The notes: generated by a model not told the origin, from the letters alone. Shown: positions 1 to 11,627, numbered from the stretch's first letter. The stretch is DNA of 11,627 nt from a virus (IMGVR_UViG_2531839179_000018:1-11627); one strand, 5' to 3'. Program-made: numbers and translations.

Positions 1-163
1 CACAACATCCGAGGACAGCATCGTCCGCCAGCCTACAGAAGTCCGGAAAGCCATGGAAGGTCGTTGGGAGGAGGTACGAATTCTATCATGCAAAAAATAC
101 GTAAAATCGATAACGCCTAGAAATCATTCAATACTCGCACTATCGAAAGTTTACCAGCCAACC

Positions 164-192
164 GCGGCACGTTCCTGCATACGACGTGCCGC
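164..192. other. Perfect 9-bp inverted repeat (gcggcacgt / acgtgccgc) with an 11-nt loop, just beyond the stop of the last tail gene
   Basis: Read directly from sequence: 164-172 is the reverse complement of 184-192. No clear U-run follows on either strand, so the terminator role is uncertain. Confidence 0.35.
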
Positions 193-200
193 AGCTTCTG

Positions 201-824
201 TTATTCCACGATAAAATTCCTAACCGAATTCAAATCCTTCAGACTATTCAGCTCTTCCTTCAGCTCCCGCTGACGGCGATAAATCTCGTCATTGCGCTCA
301 ACCTGTGCCTGAGCCATTGCTGCCGCCAGTTCTTCCAGTTCCGGCATCGACAGTTTCACCTGCTGATTATCGGCATCACCCCACGTCATCACGTCCCGTA
401 CAATGTCGGATTTCGCAGCCATTACCACCGGATAAAGGCGGCCCAGTGAGTTGGGGCCAGCATTCCAGATACGACCGTTCCATTCAAACGTGAACGGCTT
501 CGCCTCCTGTTCTGTGCGCCATGCTTCAATTCCCTGACGTCTGGCCTCTCTGGCCGCTTCCAGCATTTCTGGTGTCACAGTGAATGGGGCTATCTCACCC
601 CATTTGCCGCTTTGCAGTTCCTGCCAGATTTGCTGACCCGTCGAAGCGACATCATCAGCGGTGGCTGTGTAGGGGACTGCCTGGTCCCTGTCGTCAAAAA
701 AAACGTCACAGTCTACTGCGCCACTTTCGGTATAACGGGGATTAATGATTTTTTTAATTTCCACGGTGCATTCCTCACGATGTGCGAATAAAAAGCCCGG
801 GCATTGCGCCAGAGACATGTGCAT
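201..824 (-). CDS. Tail-fibre-associated protein, putative fibre assembly chaperone (weak call)
   Basis: 207-aa ORF directly downstream of the Stf-like fibre gene, the position usually held by a Tfa/chaperone. No motif I can name with certainty. It overlaps the fibre gene by 50 nt; a GTG at 762-764 just after the fibre stop is a plausible true start. Confidence 0.45.
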   Translation of the reverse strand: MHMSLAQCPGFLFAHREECTVEIKKIINPRYTESGAVDCDVFFDDRDQAVPYTATADDVASTGQQIWQELQSGKWGEIAPFTVTPEMLEAAREARRQGIEAWRTEQEAKPFTFEWNGRIWNAGPNSLGRLYPVVMAAKSDIVRDVMTWGDADNQQVKLSMPELEELAAAMAQAQVERNDEIYRRQRELKEELNSLKDLNSVRNFIVE

Positions 825-2043
825 CCGGCACCCCGGACAGGGCGCAATATGACCCCGGTAATGAATGCTCTGAACATCCCGTAATGAAAAATTGTGGGGA
901 TGCTATATACGTTCCGGTGGGAGTACTGGTCACTGAAATCCCCACCGGTCCCAGTCGTGAGCCTCTGTATGACCGCCCCCTGACAAGTCTGATGACTTTA
1001 TCACCGTCAGCTTCTCCCTGGTACGCAGCAATAATCAGCCCGCCAATGTCAGGGTCTCCCCATCTGTTGCGGACAGAGCTCGCCACGATTCTGTAAATAA
1101 TATCTTCTGTGGTTATATTTATTTTCACCCAGCCAGTCAGTCTGGATATGGGCCAGTAGCAGTAGCGGGTGTGATAAATGGGGCCGTTAATGCCGTAAAA
1201 AGTAAGGGATTTGGCTCTGTACCTCGGTTCTGTTGTCTCAGGGCGTGCATCAGTCCACCGGATGCTGAGCACCCCTTCAAACCGTGTGTCAGGTATGATG
1301 ATGTCGTAGGGGCCAGCAACGGAATATTCACCTGGCAGCGCATTCCTTACCCAGGCCAGGAAATCACTCTTAGTGTCAAAACGGATAACATCTTCAGGCA
1401 GAAAAGCACGCCCAAAGCCGAATGCGCCGGGTATCGCCAGACGGCCTTTTGTCCGGTCGTAAATGTCGCTCTGTGCTTCCATCGTGGCTGCACTTTTCAG
1501 CCCCAGATTATCCCGGGACTTCTGTTGTGCCTTTTCGCCTGCTGCTGCGATTTCAGACAGATGGTTAGCCGTTTTCAGAGTGCCGGTCAGCGCAGCATCA
1601 ATGTCATTTTTGGCCTGTTCTGCTGCGCGGGCATAACCTGCGGCTGCCGCCACATCCTGCGCCGTCTGCTGTGCGTTTCCGGCTGCGGCCCCGGCGCTCT
1701 GCTGCGCCTGCGCCACCATTTCCTCAAAGCGTTTGACGACATCCGGTTTCAGGTCGCCCTCATCAGGAGCAATCAGAAAGTCATTCAGCGTGCCGGGCTT
1801 TGAGTCCTCATATACAGCAATGTCGCCAACGTTGTACTCGTTGCGCCAGTCCTGTTTCAGATACACACCATATTTTCCAGTCCGCGCATGGAAACAGTAT
1901 TCACCATCGTTTCCTGTCATCACATCAGCAACAGTGTGCATAACCACTTCCGGGGTGTTTACCCGGGATTTCAGAATAATATGGTATCCGGACATGGGGA
2001 TACCTGCGCCATCAGTCAGCGCACCTGATATCACTACAGACAT
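775..2043 (-). CDS. Side tail fibre protein with lambda-Stf-type N-terminal domain
   Basis: 422-aa ORF. The N-terminus (MSVVISGALTDGAGIP...VYEDSKPGTLNDFL) matches the conserved prophage tail-fibre N-terminal domain pattern of lambda Stf, followed by an Ala/Gln-rich coiled-coil-like stretch. The C-terminal ~100 aa are compositionally odd. Confidence 0.7.
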   Translation of the reverse strand: MSVVISGALTDGAGIPMSGYHIILKSRVNTPEVVMHTVADVMTGNDGEYCFHARTGKYGVYLKQDWRNEYNVGDIAVYEDSKPGTLNDFLIAPDEGDLKPDVVKRFEEMVAQAQQSAGAAAGNAQQTAQDVAAAAGYARAAEQAKNDIDAALTGTLKTANHLSEIAAAGEKAQQKSRDNLGLKSAATMEAQSDIYDRTKGRLAIPGAFGFGRAFLPEDVIRFDTKSDFLAWVRNALPGEYSVAGPYDIIIPDTRFEGVLSIRWTDARPETTEPRYRAKSLTFYGINGPIYHTRYCYWPISRLTGWVKINITTEDIIYRIVASSVRNRWGDPDIGGLIIAAYQGEADGDKVIRLVRGRSYRGSRLGPVGISVTSTPTGTYIASPQFFITGCSEHSLPGSYCALSGVPDAHVSGAMPGLFIRTS

Positions 2044-2066
2044 TGTTTTTCTCGCGATAAATTAAA

Positions 2067-2612
2067 TCAGGAAGAACCTTCCGGAGAGACGGGCCATTCA
2101 ATGGCGTTGTATGAGGATTTATCAGTGATGGCGCTGAAATCCATCGCCTGCAGTGATTTCGCGTAAATACGACAGGCTTTCAGCTTTTCTTTATCTTCGT
2201 CGCTGATTAACCCCAGCAGCAGGTCTTCTTCCCATTCCCCTGTCCGGGCACTGACCTGAGCCAGAAGGGCATCACGCTCATCTTCCGCTTTGAGTCTGTA
2301 GTCAAAGACAAATTCATCATTGCGGTAAAACCAGTAACCCGGCGCGGTAATCCGTCGGTTAGCGGTAATATCAGGAACTTCAATAACACTGGCATTGCGT
2401 GGCTCGATGCCTGTCACATCCTTACCGACCCACACCACACGACCGTCTCCGGTGTAAGCTATTTTTATTGTGTCGCTGGCGAAATTCTTCAGCTCTTCAT
2501 ACCAGTTTTTTCCGTCTTCTGAAAAAAGCCAGGTGACCGAATATCGTTTTGTCATCTGATATTGTTCTGCTGTTTTCGGATTACCCGCAGTAATATTTTT
2601 TAAATGCAACAT
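2067..2612 (-). CDS. Tail fibre assembly chaperone (P2 gpG / Mu U family)
   Basis: 181-aa ORF. N-terminus MLHLKNITAGNPKTAEQYQMTK...SEDGKNWYEELKNF closely resembles P2 gpG, and the C-terminus ends in the typical IEWPxxP motif. It starts 2 nt after the fibre stop. Confidence 0.8.
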   Translation of the reverse strand: MLHLKNITAGNPKTAEQYQMTKRYSVTWLFSEDGKNWYEELKNFASDTIKIAYTGDGRVVWVGKDVTGIEPRNASVIEVPDITANRRITAPGYWFYRNDEFVFDYRLKAEDERDALLAQVSARTGEWEEDLLLGLISDEDKEKLKACRIYAKSLQAMDFSAITDKSSYNAIEWPVSPEGSS

Positions 2613-2614
2613 TG

Positions 2615-3817
2615 TTAAATACTCGCTACGTTATACCAGGTGCCATTAATCAGTTTTTGCAGTGGTCGGTAATACACACCGTCAACGTTATCCGCTGAGT
2701 TACGGCCGGTATCCGATATCGCCATCCCTGACAGCCCGTGTCCCGAAGGTGCGCAAAATCTCCACGAAACGGTGTTACTGCCGGGGCTGTAATACATTTC
2801 ATGGCCATACCGTACATCCTGTACCCCCTCTGTTCGATATTTATAGCGGGCATCGAAGTTTCCGTAATTTAACGGAATTACCTGTCCGTTAACAGTGAAC
2901 ACTATGCTGTTATCCGGGTTTCTCTGGCTGAAAAAATGCCAGCCTGAATCATCACCAAGCTCTGCAACAACAGGCCTGGATGGATTACCCCACAAACAAA
3001 ACGCTGCATTTTTCGTGGAGTTGTTGGCGCTGGATAACGTGAATTTTCTGGCAGTTCCGGCCTGAATATTCTTAAAAGCAATAGCCACGCCATTCTGAAA
3101 ACGAAATACATGCTGTCCATTCGCATAAACATCCAGCAGACCATCGCCATTTTGTTTAAACCCGGTATCGTTATCTCCTAAAACGATTGAACTTCCACCT
3201 AACGCATTCGTCGTACCAATGCCAAGGCAACCATTAATGACGGCATTAACCAGAATATTTAGTGTATCCCATTTGAGATTCATCAGGTCTTTAACCCGGC
3301 CGCCAGCGAGGCGGTGTCTCCATTTGAAATATTCATTACCGTTATCCGCCGTTTCAAACCACATGTAGGAATCGGTGTCTGCATCCGAATCATTTTTAAA
3401 TCCAATCTTCGCCCAGTCAGTATTCCGAATCCAGGCGAGGATTGAGTCGTTTTCAAAAGTAAGTCCACCGGACAAGGTATCGCCTTCCTGATGAACATAG
3501 CGTTGATCTGACTGCTCTTTACTGTAAACCTGAAGATTATCCCGTGCCGTCCCTTTATTCTGAAGGTCTGACAGATTGTTCTTCTGCCGCAGGAATATCC
3601 TTTTCGGATCCTCAAGAAGATTTACCCAGCCCGCACTGTCGGAGCCTTCAGGATCGGTCAGGTTATCGTCTGTGGTATTCAGCCAGACCGCTGTTGTTGC
3701 GACTCCGGCGAGAATGGCTCCTTTTGCATATCCACCAATGGCCCCCGCAAAACCGGCATTATACGTGTACAAACCGCCAGCCTGGGCGAACCGTATTGCT
3801 GCGGTAATATCGTACAT
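2615..3817 (-). CDS. Tail fibre protein, major C-terminal portion (P2 gpH / Mu S-like); 3' segment of a gene interrupted at a G10 tract
   Basis: 400-aa ORF containing the conserved fibre C-terminal block ([32 protein letters not shown]...[10 protein letters not shown]). Its frame stays open upstream of the ATG through the homopolymer to a stop at 3872-3874. Confidence 0.8.
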
Positions 3818-3824
3818 CAGACCG

Positions 3825-4016
3825 TTAAAATCCTTGCCGTGTGGCGGTCCCCCCCCCCGCTGAGACCGCTGTCATGGTCGTCGGAGGAAAACCTGAATCA
3901 TACGCAGCATTACCGCTCTCTCTGGTCTGCTGTGTCGCCTTGTCCGGGATACGGTTTTTATCTCCGGTACTCGCAAAGGGGACCGCCAGCTGGCGGGGTT
4001 TATCACTGGCCTTCAT
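3825..4016 (-). CDS. Tail fibre protein, N-terminal segment (5' part of the interrupted fibre gene)
   Basis: 63-aa ORF with a strong Shine-Dalgarno (AAGGAG, 7-nt spacing) before its ATG. It reads through the G10 tract as Gly-Gly-Gly and terminates 8 codons later, in a different frame from the 400-aa ORF. Confidence 0.6.
3849..3858. repeat. Homopolymeric tract, C10 on the plus strand (G10 in the coding sense) inside the tail fibre gene
   Basis: Counted directly from sequence. It lies exactly at the frame change between ORF 3825-4016 and ORF 2615-3817. Confidence 0.95.
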
Positions 4017-4608
4017 TACGGGACTCCTTTAAAACTACTGAAACATAAACACCCGGCGGGGACGGCAGTGCACCCGACGACTGGATAATCGCCAGTTCTG
4101 CCGACGAGAGCGCGGACTCAAAGACGTAACTCATCCTCAGCCCGCCATTATTCAGAACATAAGCCCGGCGTTTTTTTCCGAACATAAACCTCAGCATCCG
4201 GTTAATATCCGGAACGGAACAGTCAGTAATATTCGACATGGCTTTCATCAGGATCAGTCGCCGGTATATGGCATCAGTCAGGTCAACAGTCCGGGTAACC
4301 GATTTTCCGTTGTAAAACGGTGCCTGATTAAACGGGCGGGAATCATCCATTACCGGGGTGTCCATCCTGGACTCGCTGAAGCCCAGGTAATTAAAATCGT
4401 CCTTTACCGTCAGCCGGCGACTGACACCCACAATCTTTCCCCAGACATCAAGACCATACTTTTCTGCGGTATCGATGTTCCAGATAAGACCATAAAAATC
4501 ACTGATAAAACTGTCGGGGGAAAGCGCTGCGTTAAAGCTGTTAATGAGGGCATTGAGTCGGGAGCTGGCAGCATACTGCGCAAGCACAGTGGCAGCCACA
4601 TTCTGCAC
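4003..4608 (-). CDS. Baseplate/tail protein in the gpI / Mu gp48 position
   Basis: 201-aa ORF between the J-like gene and the fibre gene. The call rests on synteny with P2 (V-W-J-I-H-G) and Mu (gp45-gp48, S, U); I cannot confirm the sequence family by eye. Confidence 0.45.
4024..4028 (-). promoter_or_regulatory. Shine-Dalgarno sequence for the tail fibre gene start at 4016
   Basis: The minus-strand mRNA reads AAAGGAGUCCCGUA-AUG, giving an AGGAG core 7 nt upstream of the ATG. Confidence 0.6.
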
Positions 4609-4609
4609 G

Positions 4610-5392
4610 TTATGCCTCCTGGAGTTTCACACTGATATCCGACACATCCAGAACCGGAATCTCATCTATCCCGAAAGTGACAGCCGTTGTCCATGACGAA
4701 CCGTCACGGCTCACAGTAAGGCCCAGAATATCAATATGTTCCGGATCGGTTTTGTAAATGCCGGCATAGTAGCGCCCGGCAGAGACAACAGAGGCAACTC
4801 TTGCCCGCAGACCACCATCTGTACCATTAAATGCGTCCAGCACGGATTGCTGTACCTGTCGGGTAATATCTGAAGGCAGGTAGTCACTTTTTTTCAGCGT
4901 CACACTGACATGCAGACTGACGGGTTTGAGTGTCTGCCAGCTGATCACGTATTCAGGATACGGCGGATCGTACTCCTTATCTGCAACAGTGAACGTTGTG
5001 TTGCCATTCATATCAATACCCGGCGGAGCCTTACGCCAGATGGCCGCCGCGATATCTGCCGGGCTGCCGCCGTACACGCCAACATAAAGCGAACCGGGTG
5101 TTAATGGATACTGACTGACTCCGGCTTTTTGTTCTGTTTTTTTCGGATTATGGGTGACGTAAACATCCACCACGTTTTCTACCGTGGAGAGTATTTCACC
5201 CCGGATGGCTTCCAGAATATTCCGGGCATTACGGGCAACTGAATTACGTCGGCGGTTTTCAAAGTCCGCACGGGTTTCCTCATCGCTGCCCGGCACACCG
5301 GCACGGGCGTTAGTGACACCTGACCAGCCAGGTATTGCCTTATAAATTTTATTCAGCGTCCCCACAGGACAGCCGACGGGGCCGGTGGACAA
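4610..5392 (-). CDS. Baseplate J-like protein, C-terminal portion (3' segment of an apparently frameshifted gene)
   Basis: 260-aa ORF that begins at TTG with no Shine-Dalgarno. Its frame is open a further ~20 codons upstream and overlaps the end of ORF 5395-5847; the two ORFs together (~410 aa) match baseplate-J size and position. Confidence 0.6.
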   Translation of the reverse strand: MSTGPVGCPVGTLNKIYKAIPGWSGVTNARAGVPGSDEETRADFENRRRNSVARNARNILEAIRGEILSTVENVVDVYVTHNPKKTEQKAGVSQYPLTPGSLYVGVYGGSPADIAAAIWRKAPPGIDMNGNTTFTVADKEYDPPYPEYVISWQTLKPVSLHVSVTLKKSDYLPSDITRQVQQSVLDAFNGTDGGLRARVASVVSAGRYYAGIYKTDPEHIDILGLTVSRDGSSWTTAVTFGIDEIPVLDVSDISVKLQEA

Positions 5393-5394
5393 AT

Positions 5395-5847
5395 TCAGAA
5401 ATACCGCATCAACCTGCCCTGATGCGCCGATAGTGACGTCTGACTGACATACTTATAACCGGCCTCATCCTGCGCCATACTGCTCGCCGGGATCAGCGTG
5501 CCAACCAGCCCGGTACAGGTCGCTGTTACTGTCGTACCTGTGGCCCCACGGCGCTCCAGGAAATAAATCCTGCCTATTGCATCCTGAAAGCGACCACTGA
5601 AAAAGTCAGGGTTGATCTGGTTAACGATATACAGCAACTGATCGTTTTTATCCGCAATAATGGCGCTTTCGCTGGATGCAAGTTGTCCCTGCGGACTGCT
5701 CAGACTGGTACTCATGGCCCCGCCCAGCGCCGCCGAAAAATCAGCAAGCCTGCCGCTCAGAATATCCGCTTCATCCGGCACATTCAGCCCGCTATCCGAA
5801 ATCTGTACAGCGGGCACTGCGGTAGAAAAAGATTTATTTTCACTCAT
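5395..5847 (-). CDS. Baseplate J-like protein, N-terminal portion (5' segment of an apparently frameshifted gene)
   Basis: 150-aa ORF whose start overlaps the upstream gene by 4 nt. It stops at TGA (5395-5397), 2 nt before the downstream ORF's first codon, which is in another frame. Confidence 0.6.
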   Translation of the reverse strand: MSENKSFSTAVPAVQISDSGLNVPDEADILSGRLADFSAALGGAMSTSLSSPQGQLASSESAIIADKNDQLLYIVNQINPDFFSGRFQDAIGRIYFLERRGATGTTVTATCTGLVGTLIPASSMAQDEAGYKYVSQTSLSAHQGRLMRYF

Positions 5848-6200
5848 AGCAGTACCGTAAAAATGTCATTATTGGTATCTGTAATACGCAGCACACCTGT
5901 TACTGTCCGGGTTTGATCAGTTGTGACCTGGCAGACAGCGGCGCTCACGGTCGGCAGTTTAAGTGCTTCCTGTTGCAGAGTGGCATTCACCAGTTGTGTG
6001 CCGGGCCAGTGTCCGAGGATGCGTGGCCAGTAAGGTATGCCAGCCGTTGAGTCGTACCAGCACTCCCCCAGAAAAGTACTGCACGCACACGCCACATCCT
6101 GAGCTACCGCATGGGGATTATCAGTAATGGCAAGATTTCCGGTATCATCAAGCAGGATATCCCATGTCCCGGTGTCAAGAAGAAGTGATCGTGACTGCAT
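5844..6200 (-). CDS. Small baseplate protein in the Mu gp46 / P2 gpW position
   Basis: 118-aa ORF between the spike and J-like genes. The call is by synteny and size only. Confidence 0.45.
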   Translation of the reverse strand: MQSRSLLLDTGTWDILLDDTGNLAITDNPHAVAQDVACACSTFLGECWYDSTAGIPYWPRILGHWPGTQLVNATLQQEALKLPTVSAAVCQVTTDQTRTVTGVLRITDTNNDIFTVLL

Positions 6201-6212
6201 GTTTTCTCCTGT

Positions 6213-6890
6213 TTACCGGGGTCCCTGCGTGGTTGAGCCGCCGGACTCAACGCCGCCGTGAACGTGGTTTCCAAAATCAATACCCCCGATGTTCGAACCG
6301 CCGGAAAGCCTGGACTGCCCGGTAACGTTAAGCCCCTTACTGACGGCGGTATCGCCGTTCAGCGCAATTTGTGGTGAGTTAACGGTGAAGCTTTTCGGCG
6401 CATTAATCACACCCTCAGGCGCGGATATCTCCACTTTCCAGGGAGATACAATCCGTATCTGGTTGTCATCAAATACCACAAACTGGACGGGATCACCGTT
6501 GAGCACGCCACCCAGCCAGATGGCATCAGCATAATTATGGGTACGCTTTGATCCCGGCATCGCAGCCTGACGCGTGGCTTTTACCGCACTGATATCCCGA
6601 TCGCAGATGGCAAGAAAACCGATATCCCCCACATGTGGCGGCATAATCACCGCATTACCGCCCCCCTGTAGTCGCCATACGGGAATGTTATAAATCACCT
6701 CATGTTCAACCGGGGAACCGTCTGCTGCAACGCCCATTACCATCGGTCGGGCCTCAATAAATCCCTCTTCCACGGCTACCACCCGTCCCAGAGTGATAAA
6801 CGCATGACGTCCGAGAAACTGCCGCAGCATAAAGTCCTGTGCATTGATTTCGCTGTTCACGTCTGTCGGGTTACTGAGTGGTTGTGCCAT
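6213..6890 (-). CDS. Baseplate central spike protein (P2 gpV / Mu gp45-like)
   Basis: 225-aa ORF of the right size and position for a spike protein, with a Gly-rich C-terminus carrying an HxH motif (GIDFGNHVHGGVESGG), as seen in spike apex domains. A Met at residue 21 is an alternative start lying after the upstream stop. Confidence 0.65.
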   Translation of the reverse strand: MAQPLSNPTDVNSEINAQDFMLRQFLGRHAFITLGRVVAVEEGFIEARPMVMGVAADGSPVEHEVIYNIPVWRLQGGGNAVIMPPHVGDIGFLAICDRDISAVKATRQAAMPGSKRTHNYADAIWLGGVLNGDPVQFVVFDDNQIRIVSPWKVEISAPEGVINAPKSFTVNSPQIALNGDTAVSKGLNVTGQSRLSGGSNIGGIDFGNHVHGGVESGGSTTQGPR

Positions 6891-7740
6891 TTTCTTCAGC
6901 CCTCATCATGGTACAGTTGGAACTCCACGGACCGCCCACGGTTCGCGAAGTAATGGTGTGTATCACCCCTGTGATCGTATAATCGCCCGTCATATCAGGC
7001 AGTGACGATTCCAGATGCGCTGGCCTGCCAGTAAAGAGATCGGGGCAGAATATCGTGGTGGCGCTGAGTCCGGTCATGGTGTAAACCGGATAGCCAGTCA
7101 GTCCGTGATCCGGCGAAATCAGTACCGGCGGAATATTCCGGTTCTGCCCTTTCGGCCAGATGGTGACTTTCTCCACATTCCCCAGATCAATGTTAATATC
7201 GGCGGCTGAAGCGACATCCAGCATTTGTTGTACAACATTACCGGAAAAATGCGGGTCAGACAGACTGCGGCTGACCCCCTGGTTTTCAAATCCAAGCCCG
7301 ACAGTTGACGCCAGCGCACGGATAATATCTGCAACCGCAACATCGCCCTTTGCGCTGAAATCTGCCGCCGGCTGATTACGCAGATTAAAATGAATCTGTC
7401 CTGTCAGAATGAGCGGAATATCCGGCGCCTGGTTGTAGTCGGCGTATGCATCAGTAATATCACCTTCAAAAATAAGCCGCCCGTCGGCCCACAGCCGCAT
7501 TTTATTTGCGGTACTCTGCTCCTGTCGCCACACACCGCGCCAGCTTAAATTCGTCATATGCGCCGGTGACATTCCCCAGATATACAGCGTGATTTGTGTA
7601 CCAGCCACCCCTCCATATACGGCAATACTGGCAAAACAGCTTGCGTCGGTAATGGTCAGCATATTGCCCTGGCCATTACCAAACGTTCGTCCGTCTGAAA
7701 GAGTGAACTCCACCGTTATTTTACGTTGTCTGTAGCTCAT
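6871..7740 (-). CDS. Tail/baseplate protein, possibly hub-like (Mu gp44 position)
   Basis: 289-aa ORF immediately upstream of the spike gene, with a start that overlaps the stop of the upstream fragment. Function is inferred from position only. Confidence 0.4.
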
Positions 7741-7959
7741 ATCAGTTCCTCAGGTAACAGCCAGTAGAGCCGGTACCGGGATCCGAGCCCCCGCCAGTCA
7801 GGGTCACTATTCCCCTCCGTGTCGGTAAAAAACAGGTCCCCCTGAAACGGCAGGTATCCGTACCGGACAATCCGGTTATTATTCAGACACAGCACGCCAT
7901 ACAGGCACGGTTCACCATTAACAATGATATCGATATACATCCCCGTAGTACGCTGATTC
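7737..7959 (-). pseudogene. 3' remnant (~74 codons) of a phage tail gene truncated by the IS66-family insertion
   Basis: The reading frame is open from the IS66 end at 7960 down to the stop at 7737-7739, and is translationally coupled to the next gene. The 5' part of the gene is replaced by IS sequence. Confidence 0.45.
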
Positions 7960-8897
7960 GTAAGCGCCCCGAGAAGTACGTAGCGTAAGGATTATTTTAC
8001 AGACGAGAAGTTCCAGGGAAGCAGTTCATGCACTTGGTTCGACGGCCAGTCATTGAGCTTCTCGATCACTTCGCGCAACCAGTCCTCCGGCTCCACTTCG
8101 TTCTGTTTGCAGGTGACCAGCAGACTGTAGATGATCGCCGCACTTTCTCCTCCCTTGTCTGAACCGAAAAAGAGATAATTTTTTCTTCCAACCGCCACCG
8201 ATCGTAACGCGTTTTCACCGATGTTGTTGTCTATTTCCACCCAGCCGTCACGACAGAACTCGTTCAGCGCATTCCAGTGATTCAGGATATAGTCGAACGC
8301 CTTCGCCATCTCCGCATGTTTCGACAGCGTTTTCCTCTGCAACTGTATCCAGTCGTACAACGACTGCATCAACTGGACGCTTCTGGCTTTTCTGACTGCA
8401 AGCCGTTCCTCTGCCGGACTGCCACGTATCTCCGCTTCTATATCGTATAACTCTGCTATCCGTCTGAGCGCTTCCTGAGTCATTTCTGTCGGACGGCGCA
8501 CATCCTCGTCATGGATTTTTCGGCGGGCGTGGGCCAGGCACCCGGCTTCCTTCACCCGGCCCGCTTCGTACAGTACGTTATAACCTGCATAGGCATCAGC
8601 CTGCAGTACGCCCTGATACTTTGCCAGGTGGAGCTGCGGATGTTCTCCTTTGCGATCTGCCGAATACGCGAACCAGACGGCTGCCGGCAGGGATGAACCC
8701 GCATTACGATCATCCCTGACGTATACCCACAGACGACCCGTTTTCGTCTTTCCGTTCCCCGGGGCCAGTACTTTCACCGGAGTGTCATCTGCGTGCACCT
8801 TTCCTGCCTCCAGAACATAGTCATTCAGCGCTATATACAGAGGACGGAGTTTGTCTGCCATTTCTGATACCCAGCGCACCATGGTATTACGGCTCAG
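7960..8897 (-). mobile_element. IS66-family insertion sequence, truncated: terminal repeat end plus the 3' part of tnpC
   Basis: The end begins with GTAAGCG at 7960, typical of IS66-family terminal repeats, and carries the tnpC C-terminal ORF. The element is cut at 8897/8898 by the IS3-family end. Confidence 0.7.
7992..8882 (-). pseudogene. IS66-family transposase TnpC, C-terminal fragment (N-terminal ~220 aa missing)
   Basis: 296-aa ORF carrying the C-terminal catalytic region of IS66 TnpC-type transposases (DDTPVKVL...QADAYAGY...HARRK). Full-length TnpC is about 520 aa. Confidence 0.8.
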
Positions 8898-9224
8898 TGA
8901 GGTAGCCTGAGTTTAACGGACACTCCTTCCTGAAATAGAATGGCATCAGAAGGAGCTAATAATGAGCAGAAAAACCCAACGTTACTCTAAAGAGTTCAAA
9001 GCCGAAGCTGTCAGAACGGTTCTTGAAAATCAACTTTCGATCAGTGAAGGCGCTTCCCGATTATCCCTTCCTGAAGGCACTTTAGGACAATGGGTTACCG
9101 CCGCCAGAAAAGGGCTCGGTACTCCTGGTTCCCGCACGGTGGCTGAACTGGAATCTGAAATTCTGCAACTGCGTAAGGCGTTAAATGAAGCTCGCCTTGA
9201 GCGAGATATATTAAAAAAAGCAAC
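8898..9224 (+). mobile_element. IS3-family element (IS600-like), 5' end only: left terminal repeat plus orfA up to the frameshift window
   Basis: The left end TGAGGTAGCCTGAGTTTAACGG resembles the IS911 left end. OrfA begins at 8962 with a Shine-Dalgarno, and the element is cut at 9224 by IS30. Confidence 0.7.
8962..9224 (+). pseudogene. IS3-family OrfA (IS600-like), truncated after ...DILKKAT by IS30
   Basis: Translation MSRKTQRYSKEFKAEAVRTVLENQLSISEGASRLS... has an HTH and leucine-zipper-like OrfA architecture. The six-frame ORF (8962-9330) runs artificially into the IS30 terminal repeat. Confidence 0.75.
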
Positions 9225-10445
9225 TGTAGATTCAATTGGTCAACGCAACAGTTATGTGAAAACATGGGGTTGCGGAGGTTTTTTGAATGAGACGAACATT
9301 TACAGCAGAGGAAAAAGCCTCTGTTTTTGAACTATGGAAGAACGGAACAGGCTTCAGTGAAATAGCGAATATCCTGGGTTCAAAACCCGGAACGATCTTC
9401 ACTATGTTAAGGGATACTGGCGGCATAAAACCCCATGAGCGTAAGCGGGCTGTAGCTCACCTGACACTGTCTGAGCGCGAGGAGATACGAGCTGGTTTGT
9501 CAGCCAAAATGAGCATTCGTGCGATAGCTACTGCGCTGAATCGCAGTCCTTCGACGATCTCACGTGAAGTTCAGCGTAATCGGGGCAGACGCTATTACAA
9601 AGCTGTTGATGCTAATAACCGAGCCAACAGAATGGCGAAAAGGCCAAAACCGTGCTTACTGGATCAAAATTTACCATTGCGAAAGCTTGTTCTGGAAAAG
9701 CTGGAGATGAAATGGTCTCCAGAGCAAATATCAGGATGGTTAAGGCGAACAAAACCACGTCAAAAAACGCTGCGAATATCACCTGAGACAATTTATAAAA
9801 CGCTGTACTTTCGTAGCCGTGAAGCGCTACACCACCTGAATATACAGCATCTGCGACGGTCGCATAGCCTTCGCCATGGCAGGCGTCATACCCGCAAAGG
9901 CGAAAGAGGTACGATTAACATAGTGAACGGAACACCAATTCACGAACGTTCCCGAAATATCGATAACAGACGCTCTCTGGGGCATTGGGAGGGCGATTTA
10001 GTCTCAGGTACAAAAAACTCTCATATAGCCACACTTGTAGACCGAAAATCACGTTATACGATCATCCTTAGACTCAGGGGCAAAGATTCTGTCTCAGTAA
10101 ATCAGGCTCTTACCGACAAATTCCTGAGTTTACCGTCAGAACTCAGAAAATCACTGACATGGGACAGAGGAATGGAACTGGCCAGACATCTAGAATTTAC
10201 TGTCAGCACCGGCGTTAAAGTTTACTTCTGCGATCCTCAGAGTCCTTGGCAGCGGGGAACAAATGAGAACACAAATGGGCTAATTCGGCAGTACTTTCCT
10301 AAAAAGACATGTCTTGCCCAATATACTCAACATGAACTAGATCTGGTTGCTGCTCAGCTAAACAACAGACCGAGAAAGACACTGAAGTTCAAAACACCGA
10401 AAGAGATAATTGAAAGGGGTGTTGCATTGACAGATTGAATCTACA
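9225..10445 (+). mobile_element. IS30, complete (1221 bp) with 26-bp imperfect terminal inverted repeats
   Basis: Left repeat 9225-9250 (tgtagattcaattggtcaacgcaaca) and right repeat 10420-10445 (reverse complement tgtagattcaatctgtcaatgcaaca) match at 23 of 26 positions. Length and single-transposase organisation match IS30. Confidence 0.9.
9287..10438 (+). CDS. insI: IS30 transposase (383 aa), intact
   Basis: Full-length ORF with an N-terminal HTH region and a DDE-type catalytic core; its stop lies inside the right terminal repeat. Confidence 0.9.
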
Positions 10446-10708
10446 GTAGCCTTTTTTAATATTTCATTCTCCATTTCAATGCGTTGTAGCTTTTTCCTCA
10501 GCTTACGTATTTCGATTTGTTCTGGTGTTATCGGAGAGGCTTTTGGTGTTTTGCCCTGACGCTCATCACGCAGTTGTTTGACCCATCTTGTCATTGTGGA
10601 AAGGCCAACATCCATAGCTTTGGCGGCATCTGCCACCGTGTATTTCTGGTCAACAACCAGTTGAGCGGATTCGCGTTTAAACTCTGCGCTAAAATTTCTT
10701 TTTTTCAT
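10446..10708 (-). pseudogene. insN: IS911 OrfA, truncated after ...EILKKAT by IS30
   Basis: Translation [51 protein letters not shown]... is the IS911 OrfA N-terminus as I recall it. The six-frame ORF (10358-10744) is a chimera that adds upstream codons and reads into IS30. Confidence 0.8.
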
Positions 10709-10780
10709 TGGAGCACCTGTGTTGTTCTGAGGTGAGCATATCACCTCTGTTCAGGTGGCCAAATTCAGTGTGCCACTTCA
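10446..10780 (-). mobile_element. IS911 (IS3 family), 5' end only, inverted relative to the IS600-like fragment
   Basis: On the minus strand the element begins TGAAGTGGCACACTGAATTTGGCCACC at 10780 and OrfA starts at 10708. It is cut at 10446 by the IS30 right end. Confidence 0.8.
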
Positions 10781-11627
10781 TATCTTAAACTACCGGAATG
10801 AACTGCTGCATGGAGAAACGCTTTACCTAGATAATCCAAGATCCAACAAAAAAGGAAGAACCGTGCGCACAGTTGATAACTATATCGCCCTGCTCTGTTC
10901 GTTGTTACGTTTTGCGTATCAGTCGGGATTTATATCAACCAAACCATTTGAAGGAGTAAAAAAATTACAGCGAAACAGAATAAAGCCTGACCCGTTATCT
11001 AAAACAGAATTCAATGCATTAATGGAAAGTGAAAAAGGACAGAGCCAAAACTTGTGGAAATTTGCCGTTTACTCCGGGCTTCGTCACGGGGAACTGGCAG
11101 CTCTGGCGTGGGAGGATGTGGATTTCGAGAAGGGAATTGTGAATGTCAGAAGAAACCTGACGATACTTGATATGTTCGGTCCCCCAAAAACAAATGCCGG
11201 GATCCGGACGGTAACATTACTGCAGCCGGCTCTTGAAGCACTGAAGGAGCAATACAAACTGACCGGGCATCATCGCAAAAGCGAAATCACTTTTTATCAT
11301 CGGGAGTACGGCAGAACTGAAAAGCAAAAACTGCATTTTGTTTTCATGCCCAGGGTGTGTAACGAAAAACAGAAACCTTATTACTCGGTAAGCAGTTTGG
11401 GTGCAAGATGGAATGCAGCAGTAAAACGTGCTGGTATTCGCCGCCGTAATCCGTACCATACGCGACATACTTTTGCCTGCTGGCTGTTGACGGCAGGAGC
11501 GAACCCGGCATTTATAGCCAGCCAGATGGGGCATGAAACTGCGCAAATGGTGTATGAAATTTACGGTATGTGGATTGATGACATGAACGACGAACAGATA
11601 GCCATGTTGAATGCGCGGTTATCGTAG
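10781..11627 (+). pseudogene. Tyrosine recombinase (phage integrase), 5'-truncated; C-terminal catalytic domain present
   Basis: C-terminus carries catalytic-domain motifs (HTRHTFA...MGHETAQMVYEIY with the tyrosine nucleophile). The N-terminal domains are absent; sequence upstream of 10781 is the IS911 end, and the ORF's apparent start (GTG at 10755) lies inside it. Confidence 0.8.

Follow-up and report, generated by a model that had tools for sequence, protein, structure and literature searches.

[quoted passage not shown] The collar spike of Vibrio phage XM1, gp40, has 839 amino acids; its gene lies apart from those of the tail fibres, and the protein attaches to gp4 and gp5 of the neck (PMC10457771). 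The DUF4376 family includes the fibre chaperones V22 gp27 and A5 gp9 (PMC7289586, PMC10579305), and a requirement for fibre folding or activity has been demonstrated only for V22 gp27 (PMC7289586). Further points of comparison are the gpH/gpG pair of P2 and the invertible host-range segments of the Mu G, P1 C and e14 P type. Chaperones of the V22 gp27 type are characterised by a helical body and beta-hairpins, similar to the intramolecular chaperone domains of T5 pb1 and K1F.

The locus described here occupies positions 201-4016 of a viral DNA stretch of 11,627 nucleotides, referred to below as the window. It very probably comprises the four genes that close the late (tail) operon of a temperate prophage with a contractile tail, and forms a mobile host-recognition module (Table 1). 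Minus-strand ORFs were present at 201-824 (207 amino acids), 775-2043 (422 amino acids) and 2067-2612 (181 amino acids), as well as at 2615-3817 and 3825-4016. All four module genes are co-directional, and their family matches agree with an earlier sequence-only reading of two co-directional pairs of fibre and helper genes of different ancestry. The gene identities, their conserved order, the mosaic joints and the decay of this copy are the observed part of the account. No Rfam family and no tRNA was found in the window, and promoter and terminator consensus scans of positions 1-4700 gave counts not above the shuffled expectation.

Table 1. Features of the fibre module and its immediate surroundings in the window
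Feature	Position	Strand	Description
Fibre 1	2615-4016	(-)	Pseudogene in the window copy; ~110-aa N-terminal lineage-specific anchor plus P2 gpH-like distal part (2618-3496)
Tfa (tail fibre assembly protein), serving fibre 1	2067-2612	(-)	181 aa; Caudo_TAP
Fibre 2	775-2043	(-)	422 aa; lambda Stf-type N-terminal domain
Fibre 2 N-terminal anchor domain, lambda Stf type	1651..2043	(-)	Residues 1-131; PF08400
Fibre 2 shaft, Ala/Gln-rich	1474..1650	(-)	Residues 132-190; recombination joint near 1648
Fibre 2 C-terminal receptor-binding region	778..1473	(-)	Residues 191-422
DUF4376-family protein	201..764	(-)	187 aa from GTG 764 (probable start); proposed fibre 2 chaperone/'cap'
GC-rich hairpin	155..200	(-)	Directly past the DUF4376 stop codon; possible terminator
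G10 run, coding strand	3849..3858	(-)	Cause of the fibre 1 frameshift
DUF2612 baseplate wedge protein	4003..4608	(-)	Context; the fibre 1 anchor probably attaches to it

The first fibre pair and the decay of this copy

The distal 293 amino acids of fibre 1 were 68% identical to residues 392-669 of P2 gpH (BLASTP, E = 1e-138), with the alignment confined to this distal part, which also showed 81% DNA identity to the P2 H gene. The Tfa gene, which starts 2 nt past the fibre 1 stop codon, encodes a protein that matched Caudo_TAP (PF02413, E = 2.4e-26) and was 39% identical to P2 gpG over its full length (E = 6e-46). The earlier description of a P2 gpH/gpG-like fibre with its chaperone is therefore borne out for the distal fibre part and for Tfa, and the likeness extends to the gene order, the gpG-like gene lying directly downstream of the fibre. 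The anchor, however, sets this fibre apart from P2, as neither fibre 1 fragment matched PF12571, the P2-type N-terminal tail-collar anchor, in a Pfam search. It accompanies instead a DUF2612 wedge of the XM1 gp17 type, a protein that matched PF11041 (E = 5.6e-66) and the XM1 gp17 baseplate wedge (7kh1, E = 7.8e-8). Among IMG/VR loci holding both DUF2612 and fibre 1, the fibre N-terminus was 95-100% identical and the C-terminus 56 to 99%. Fibre 1 would be built from a lineage-specific N-terminal anchor, travelling with the DUF2612/J-type baseplate wedge, joined to a P2 gpH-type distal receptor-binding part, and the Caudo_TAP chaperone would come next after it.

A second difference from P2 is that the reading frame of fibre 1 is broken in the window. 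Where a single open fibre gene had been drawn over 2615-4016, two ORFs in different frames were found, of 63 amino acids (3825-4016) and 400 amino acids (2615-3817). The break falls in a plus-strand run of ten C residues at 3849-3858, corresponding to G10 on the coding strand, and deletion of one G from the run restored a fibre 1 of 466 amino acids. The homologue in enteroinvasive E. coli (EIEC) VL46 is intact, with 410 amino acids. In the window the tract is G10 followed by A (11 nt), while VL46 has GGGGGGGGTA (G8TA) and seven IMG/VR relatives have GGGAGGTATA, each of 10 nt.

A frameshift that lies exactly in a G10 homopolymer, and that a one-base change reverses, is what would be expected of a phase-variable, slipped-strand switch by which fibre 1 is turned off, leaving fibre 2 alone on display. 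The relatives, however, do not conserve the tract, and phase variation was for this reason rejected as the main reading; it is a most improbable one. The baseplate J gene carries a frameshift too, and the prophage is truncated, so the G10 frameshift is more simply put down to ordinary decay or to a sequencing error in the homopolymer.

Insertion sequences cut the prophage off upstream of the baseplate hub. With fibre 1 frameshifted and the prophage decayed, the window copy cannot be a working host-range module and is dead. Of the proposed host-range module with two receptor-binding fibres, the mosaic two-fibre set thus stands, but not as a functioning unit in this copy. Loci in enteroinvasive E. 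coli match the window locus at 96-97% identity.

The second fibre and its DUF4376 partner

Profile searches of the ORFs at 775-2043 and 201-824, which the sequence-only reading had suggested, placed the first in phage_tail_N (PF08400, E = 2.2e-70, over residues 1-131) and the second in DUF4376 (PF14301, E = 2.9e-15). The fibre 2 N-domain also matched the solved collar domain of lambda Stf (9e7m, E = 7.3e-16), which upholds the lambda Stf-type assignment made beforehand, and residues 1-212 matched the XM1 gp40 collar spike (7kjk_A3, E = 7.3e-6). The C-terminal part of about 230 amino acids had been called unusual in composition and its 3' end uncertain. It proved instead to be a conserved domain, with the homologues of four other phages or prophages aligning to the last residue. 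The predicted structure of this C-terminus is a low-confidence model (pLDDT 64.6). Members of this receptor-binding domain family are also found fused to a P2-type PF12571 anchor. In fibre 2, an Ig-like N-terminal anchor of the lambda Stf type would be followed by a short shaft of coiled coil and by the C-terminal receptor-binding domain.

The resemblance to the lambda lom-stf-tfa arrangement lies in the homologous Ig-like anchor and in the lambdoid Shigella prophages that carry the same receptor-binding domain and DUF4376 after lom. In related lambdoid loci Stf follows lom, whereas the window fibre 2 is not placed after J/lom: it lies behind the Tfa of another fibre, inside a contractile-tail operon and downstream of the spike, hub, J and DUF2612 baseplate genes. 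At the C-terminus, fibre 2 carries a domain other than the T4 gp37-like tip found in lambda Stf. The helper differs as well, as the gene directly downstream of fibre 2 gave no Caudo_TAP match in the Pfam search and belongs to DUF4376.

The DUF4376 protein scored 57 bits against PF14301, for which the cut-off is 25 bits, and matched phrog_1141 (E = 8.7e-87). The longest ORF extends up to an ATG at 824 and overlaps fibre 2 by 50 nt (775-824), as had been pointed out. The homologues, however, begin at the position equivalent to 764 (MQIKEI...), and GTG 764 is preceded, at a distance of 6 nt, by a GAGGAA ribosome-binding site that overlaps the fibre 2 TGA stop. The true start is probably GTG 764, 10 nt from the fibre 2 stop, and because of this likely start the overlap is most likely an artefact of choosing the longest ORF.

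DUF4376 was adjacent to the receptor-binding domain in all related loci, and the two were still neighbours in Av-05-like virulent phages, where identity falls to 30-38%. The window protein resembles the helpers in the V22 gp26/gp27 and A5 gp8/gp9 pairs in having a DUF4376 domain at the C-terminus and a beta-strand region at the N-terminus, in being encoded immediately after the fibre gene, and in size (187 as against 195 amino acids); V22 also has a DUF2612/XM1-type baseplate (PMC10579305). From these parallels we infer that DUF4376 acts as an intermolecular chaperone of fibre 2, most likely trimerising the fibre tip as a chaperone or transient cap in the manner of Alteromonas phage V22 gp27. 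The kinship with V22 gp27 is drawn through the Pfam model, and the enterobacterial chaperone role is putative. The earlier view of a downstream protein belonging with the fibre was supported, and what had been left as an unknown accessory is now a chaperone candidate.

Beyond the DUF4376 gene, the hairpin had a minimum free energy of -31.2 kcal/mol (z = -2.97; 1 of 200 shuffles folded as well) and may be a terminator. About 100 nt downstream of DUF4376 were conserved in the Stx2e phage phiP27, in Rac-SA53 and in vB_Apl-pPE4 (pPE4). Relatives of the window prophage carry sitABCD cargo just past the tail genes, and in EAEC 042 the tail end of prophage 042p3 is where sitABCD is located (PMC2808357). 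The place of the hairpin is between the phage late genes and sitD, which is convergent with them in these relatives.

Recurrence of the gene order and its mosaic joints

The four-gene order was found at a prophage end in EIEC VL46 (beside sitD), KY178, phiP27 (L54-L57), pPE4 (gp67-70) and Rac-SA53 (tail1-4), so that the two-fibre arrangement is indeed present in related prophages, as the earlier reading had proposed to search for. Of 5426 complete E. coli genomes, 101 contained the junction from Tfa to the Stf N-domain (StfN). The arrangement recurs, and is already annotated, in E. coli and Shigella prophages. Identities to the window in phiP27, Rac-SA53 and pPE4 were 74-88% for Tfa, 83-85% for StfN and 76-80% for DUF4376, and only ~30-37% for the fibre 2 receptor-binding part; fibre 2 length ranged from 422 to 1061 amino acids. 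The remaining tail and baseplate genes of these phages were unrelated by BLASTP, and a broken fibre 1 frame is a further difference of the window. In an all-against-all BLASTP, VL46, phiP27 and pPE4 had little in common beyond the four genes, except for the lysis genes of phiP27 and pPE4 and weak baseplate J and tape-measure matches between VL46 and pPE4. This indicates transfer of the module among contractile tails that are otherwise unrelated.

In DNA sequence, the receptor-binding part and DUF4376 matched the Stf cassette in remnants of lambdoid Shigella prophages with 96% identity. Similarity to one such lambdoid Stf locus (L014), at 96%, ends at 1648, and similarity to phiP27, Rac-SA53 and pPE4 begins at 1649. 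Of the 73 IMG/VR loci that carry this receptor-binding domain, 24-25 had lom followed by Stf and ~33 had Tfa followed by StfN; the N-domain was only 50-75% identical in the lom-Stf loci. One locus of the order lom-Stf-DUF4376-ipaH was confirmed with Pfam. Judged by sequence comparison, fibre 2 and DUF4376 are a side-tail-fibre cassette of lambdoid prophages. The recurrence of the four-gene order on unrelated tails, together with the Stf-DUF4376 pair after lom in lambdoid Shigella prophages, supports the mosaic module that had been predicted. Such a module would evolve by swapping cassettes at four conserved joints. One lies within fibre 1, one where the Stf N-domain ends (~1648), one where the receptor-binding domain meets DUF4376 (~780), and one ~100 nt after DUF4376.

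The same close identity to a Shigella lambdoid cassette could mean that fibre 2 and DUF4376 are debris of a neighbouring lambdoid prophage, joined to this tail operon by recombination or insertion-sequence activity. Several copies of the cassette occur per Shigella genome (up to three loci per genome in IMG/VR), and the locus is decayed. The two pairs, however, are separated by neither an insertion sequence nor a lambdoid gene, and the junction itself (Tfa stop, ~23 nt, StfN start) is also found in complete, isolated or inducible phiP27, pPE4 and Rac-SA53, besides the complete E. coli genomes counted above. Moreover, the N-domain allele of at least 84% identity was located solely behind Tfa in the IMG/VR loci and never behind lom. 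Such debris is very unlikely.

Two consecutive sets of fibre C-terminus and helper gene are also reminiscent of G or C segments, and the prophage is heavily rearranged by insertion sequences, as might be the case if an invertible host-range segment like those of Mu (G), P1 (C) or e14 (P) had left a remnant here, with one set as the alternative and the invertase lost. Against this, both sets lie on the minus strand and fibre 2 has its own full N-terminal anchor and start codon. The best inverted repeat in positions 1-5000 was 29 nt at 72%, inside fibre 1 and not beyond chance. The window ORFs are tail, transposase and tyrosine-integrase genes only, with no serine recombinase among them. The modules of complete phiP27 and pPE4 are likewise co-directional, ending at attR or an integrase, and no invertase is present in the annotated stretch adjacent to the module. 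An invertible segment, which the sequence-only reading had also discounted, was rejected on the co-directional genes and the lack of invertase and crossover repeats in the window and its complete relatives, and has next to no likelihood.

Placement of the second fibre and significance of the module

Returning to the mobile mosaic module, its two fibres are inferred to sit on one virion, and in intact relatives they would confer two receptor specificities. How a lambda Stf-type anchor is held on such a virion is less obvious, because the gpV/gpM collar site is covered by the sheath in contractile tails. A near-identical Stf N-domain was present in three tail lineages, and an all-against-all BLASTP of the three detected no shared docking partner for it. 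XM1 offers a parallel, as its gp40 collar spike has a homologous N-terminal domain and coiled coil and represents a fibre of this anchor type in a contractile-tailed phage whose baseplate is simple. The 422-residue fibre 2 is, however, only about half as long as gp40, and gp40 is not encoded among tail fibre genes. When the neck proteins of a relative, whose sheath is of the E217/Pa193 type, were compared with the PDB, no usable XM1 match was obtained (terminator against XM1 gp5, only E = 0.74; other neck ORFs, none). A literature search on the pPE4 and Rac-SA53 virions returned nothing useful.

One tentative and rather unlikely possibility is that in phiP27, Rac-SA53 and the sit prophage group fibre 2 is mounted off the baseplate, as a neck collar of fibres like XM1 gp40. 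A variant in which the Stf anchor docks onto the fibre 1-Tfa complex, giving a branched fibre, is less likely than the neck collar. If the neck collar is correct, the virion would have two tiers of receptor-binding fibres, and the anchor would grip a ring formed by proteins of the tube or terminator fold common to all long-tailed phages, which would explain one near-identical anchor on three unrelated tails.

There is little to gain from the window copy itself, a decayed and annotated prophage end. What it yields is a cleaner annotation, in which fibre 1 is a pseudogene, DUF4376 probably starts at GTG 764 and is best read as a fibre 2 chaperone. The lambdoid Stf and DUF4376 cassette is present as a second fibre set in at least three unrelated contractile-tail lineages and provides a concrete case of host-range modules crossing phage morphotypes.

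Fibre 1 and the state of the prophage

The tail genes of the window, assigned with Pfam and PHROGs, are listed in the table with the surrounding features; the four module genes (fibre 1, its chaperone Tfa, fibre 2 and the DUF4376 gene) come last in transcription order, after the DUF2612 gene.

Features of the window within and around the truncated prophage
Feature	Position	Strand	Remarks
GC-rich hairpin	155-200		directly 3' of DUF4376 stop codon; -31 kcal/mol, z -3.0
DUF4376 protein, longest ORF	201-824	minus	module gene
Fibre 2	775-2043	minus	module gene; PF08400 at residues 1-131, E 2.2e-70
Tfa	2067-2612	minus	module gene; Caudo_TAP protein, 181 aa
Fibre 1, main ORF	2615-3817	minus	module gene; 400 aa
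Fibre 1, N-terminal part	3825-4016	minus	separate 63-aa ORF, different frame
Ten-G run in fibre 1	3849-3858		coding strand
DUF2612 wedge protein	4003-4608	minus	XM1 gp17 match, E 7.8e-8
Baseplate J-like gene, second piece	4610-5392	minus	260 aa; frameshifted
Baseplate J-like gene, first piece	5395-5847	minus	150 aa; frameshifted
Sheath-initiator-like gene	5844-6200	minus	
Spike with gpV apex motif	6213-6890	minus	
Hub	6871-7740	minus	matches E217 gp41
Baseplate plug fragment	7737-7940	minus	first in transcription order; matches Pam3 gp18
IS66-family transposase fragment	7992-8882		adjoins truncated prophage
Two HTH_Tnp_1 transposase fragments			either side of IS30 copy
IS30 copy	9287-10438		99.7% identical to IS30 in K-12-like strains
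Tyrosine integrase gene	10755-11627		continues past window edge

The main ORF of fibre 1 shares 68% identity with residues 392-669 of P2 gpH (81% at the DNA level), and full-length identity of Tfa to P2 gpG is 39%. The sequence-only reading of two co-directional fibre-plus-accessory cassettes was essentially right, except that fibre 1 is not an open gene: it is frameshifted within the ten-G run, and removal of one G gives a continuous fibre of 466 amino acids. The site is 11 nt long in the window (G10 then A) and 10 nt in relatives, of which seven IMG/VR loci read GGGAGGTATA and the prophage of enteroinvasive E. coli VL46 reads GGGGGGGGTA, so the frameshift is either private to the window copy or a homopolymer sequencing error; the run could be real decay or such an error. 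The homopolymer seems, from this series, to have grown stepwise, and it is unlikely to be a phase-variable tract.

In every locus with the DUF2612 gene, the N-terminal ~110 amino acids of fibre 1 keep 95-100% identity, whereas identity of the distal part ranges from 56 to 99%, indicating linkage of the anchor to the baseplate and of the distal part to Tfa. Within the P2 gpH-like distal region, a 201-nt segment (window 2888-3088) stands in place of an unrelated 33-nt segment in VL46 (L001 14888-14920), a small cassette swap.

The nearest complete genomes to window 1-4700 are those of enteroinvasive E. coli (96-97% identity), and in VL46 the same genes end a complete contractile-tail prophage. 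The wedge, hub and plug matches, together with a relative's sheath that matches those of Pa193 and E217, assign the tail to the 'simple baseplate' group. In the window this prophage breaks off immediately upstream of the plug fragment, and the transposase fragments, IS30 copy and integrase gene follow in 7940-11627; the baseplate J-like gene, a single 413-aa gene in VL46, is in two pieces. The proposed mosaic host-range module with two distinct fibres has support for the gene family; the window copy itself is a dead remnant.

Fibre 2 and the DUF4376 protein

The N-terminal part of fibre 2 matches the solved collar domain of lambda Stf (E 7.3e-16) and, more weakly, the collar spike gp40 of Vibrio phage XM1 (E 7.3e-6). 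Its C terminus had been considered unusual in composition, leaving the 3' end of the gene uncertain; instead, the final ~230 amino acids form a conserved domain that aligns through its last residue with four homologues, namely phiP27 L56, Rac-SA53 tail3, pPE4 gp69 and an E. coli KY178 prophage protein. Relatives of this receptor-binding domain at 48% identity are joined instead to a P2-type PF12571 anchor. The first half of the domain is present three times in tandem in the 1061-aa Rac-SA53 tail3 (L005 1208-4393), with the motif IYDRT.G.LA.PGAFG(F/Y)G in the repeated sub-domain, an arrangement reminiscent of the duplicated knob reported in Alteromonas phage A5.

The 50-nt overlap between fibre 2 and the downstream ORF was real only as a product of longest-ORF choice. 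DUF4376 homologues, most of them 187-188 amino acids in databases, begin at the equivalent of GTG 764, and a GAGGAA lies 6 nt 5' of this codon, overlapped by the fibre 2 TGA stop codon, making GTG 764 the likely start. Spacing is tight within each fibre-helper pair, which suggests translational coupling in each.

The pairing of receptor-binding domain and DUF4376 persists at identities as low as 30-38% in virulent phages such as Av-05. The DUF4376 family includes V22 gp27, which is required for an active fibre, and A5 gp9, for which modelling gave a trimer capping the tip of the fibre (PMC7289586, PMC10579305). By analogy, we infer that the DUF4376 protein is the chaperone of fibre 2. Its predicted structure, three N-terminal strands and a helix-hairpin body, agrees with the published description; fold searches with the model did not confirm the published-type fold.

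Recurrence of the module and its mosaic joints

The order fibre, Tfa, Stf-type fibre, DUF4376 ends the genomes of phiP27, vB_Apl-pPE4 and Rac-SA53, and also prophages at other chromosomal sites. When all ORFs of VL46, phiP27 and pPE4 were compared by BLASTP, little was common besides the four module genes, the exceptions being lysis genes shared by phiP27 with pPE4, and weak matches for J and the tape measure between VL46 and pPE4. An invertible segment was excluded as a reading of the module.

At the DNA level, 102-780 and 1649-3209 are conserved with the phiP27 group and 780-1648 is swapped; 231-1648 is 96% identical to a lambdoid Shigella prophage remnant, whose N-domain shows only weak similarity. 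Of the 73 IMG/VR loci carrying the receptor-binding domain, 24-25 have Stf after lom, its N-domain allele being 50-75% identical; 27 have an allele of at least 84% identity after Tfa, and about six have a third allele after Tfa. In one lambdoid locus the order lom, Stf, DUF4376, ipaH-type effector gene was confirmed. Of 5426 complete E. coli genomes, 101 contain the junction between Tfa and the Stf N-domain. Fibre 2 and DUF4376 could be regarded as debris of a neighbouring lambdoid prophage; this is unlikely, because the junction also occurs in complete phages and this N-domain allele is confined to the Tfa context.

The module also adjoins cargo. Window base 1 falls immediately past the position of the sitD stop codon in VL46, and a prophage described in EAEC 042 carries sitABCD at its tail end (PMC2808357). 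Lying between the late genes of the phage and, in relatives, the convergent sitD, the hairpin lacks a clear U-run on the phage strand; it may act as a terminator in both directions. Window 81-350 (the DUF4376 3' end and ~120 nt downstream) is ~81% identical to DNA that lies without annotation towards the right end of several Stx2a-converting phages, and may be left over from the same cassette. In two lambdoid Shigella loci of IMG/VR (L014 9468-12538 and L012), an ipaH-type effector gene (LRR plus NEL E3 ligase) lies directly past DUF4376 on the opposite strand, and the ~97-nt equivalent of window 92-188 is inverted ~3.2 kb further along, as if cargo had been inserted or inverted at this sequence. 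In the P-EibA, C, D and E phage records, ORF-191 encodes a DUF4376 homologue (~40% identity) upstream of the immunoglobulin-binding eib genes carried by ECOR-9 prophages, so eib shares with sitABCD and ipaH the cargo position after the fibre chaperone.

Possible attachment of a lambda-type anchor to a contractile tail

The gene identities of the module are established; each component falls in a known family, and both RefSeq and published phage genomes already carry annotations of this arrangement. From the conserved intact operon, intact relatives would be expected to display both fibres on one virion. Elsewhere in sequenced phage isolates, the Stf N-domain is nearly confined to lambda-like phages and others that are non-contractile. 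In lambda these domains clasp the tube at the gpV/gpM junction (PMC12617516), and the collar-spike N-domains of XM1 bind the neck (PMC10457771). By analogy, the neck is a plausible candidate site for fibre 2, since no other ring of that kind is exposed on a sheathed tail.
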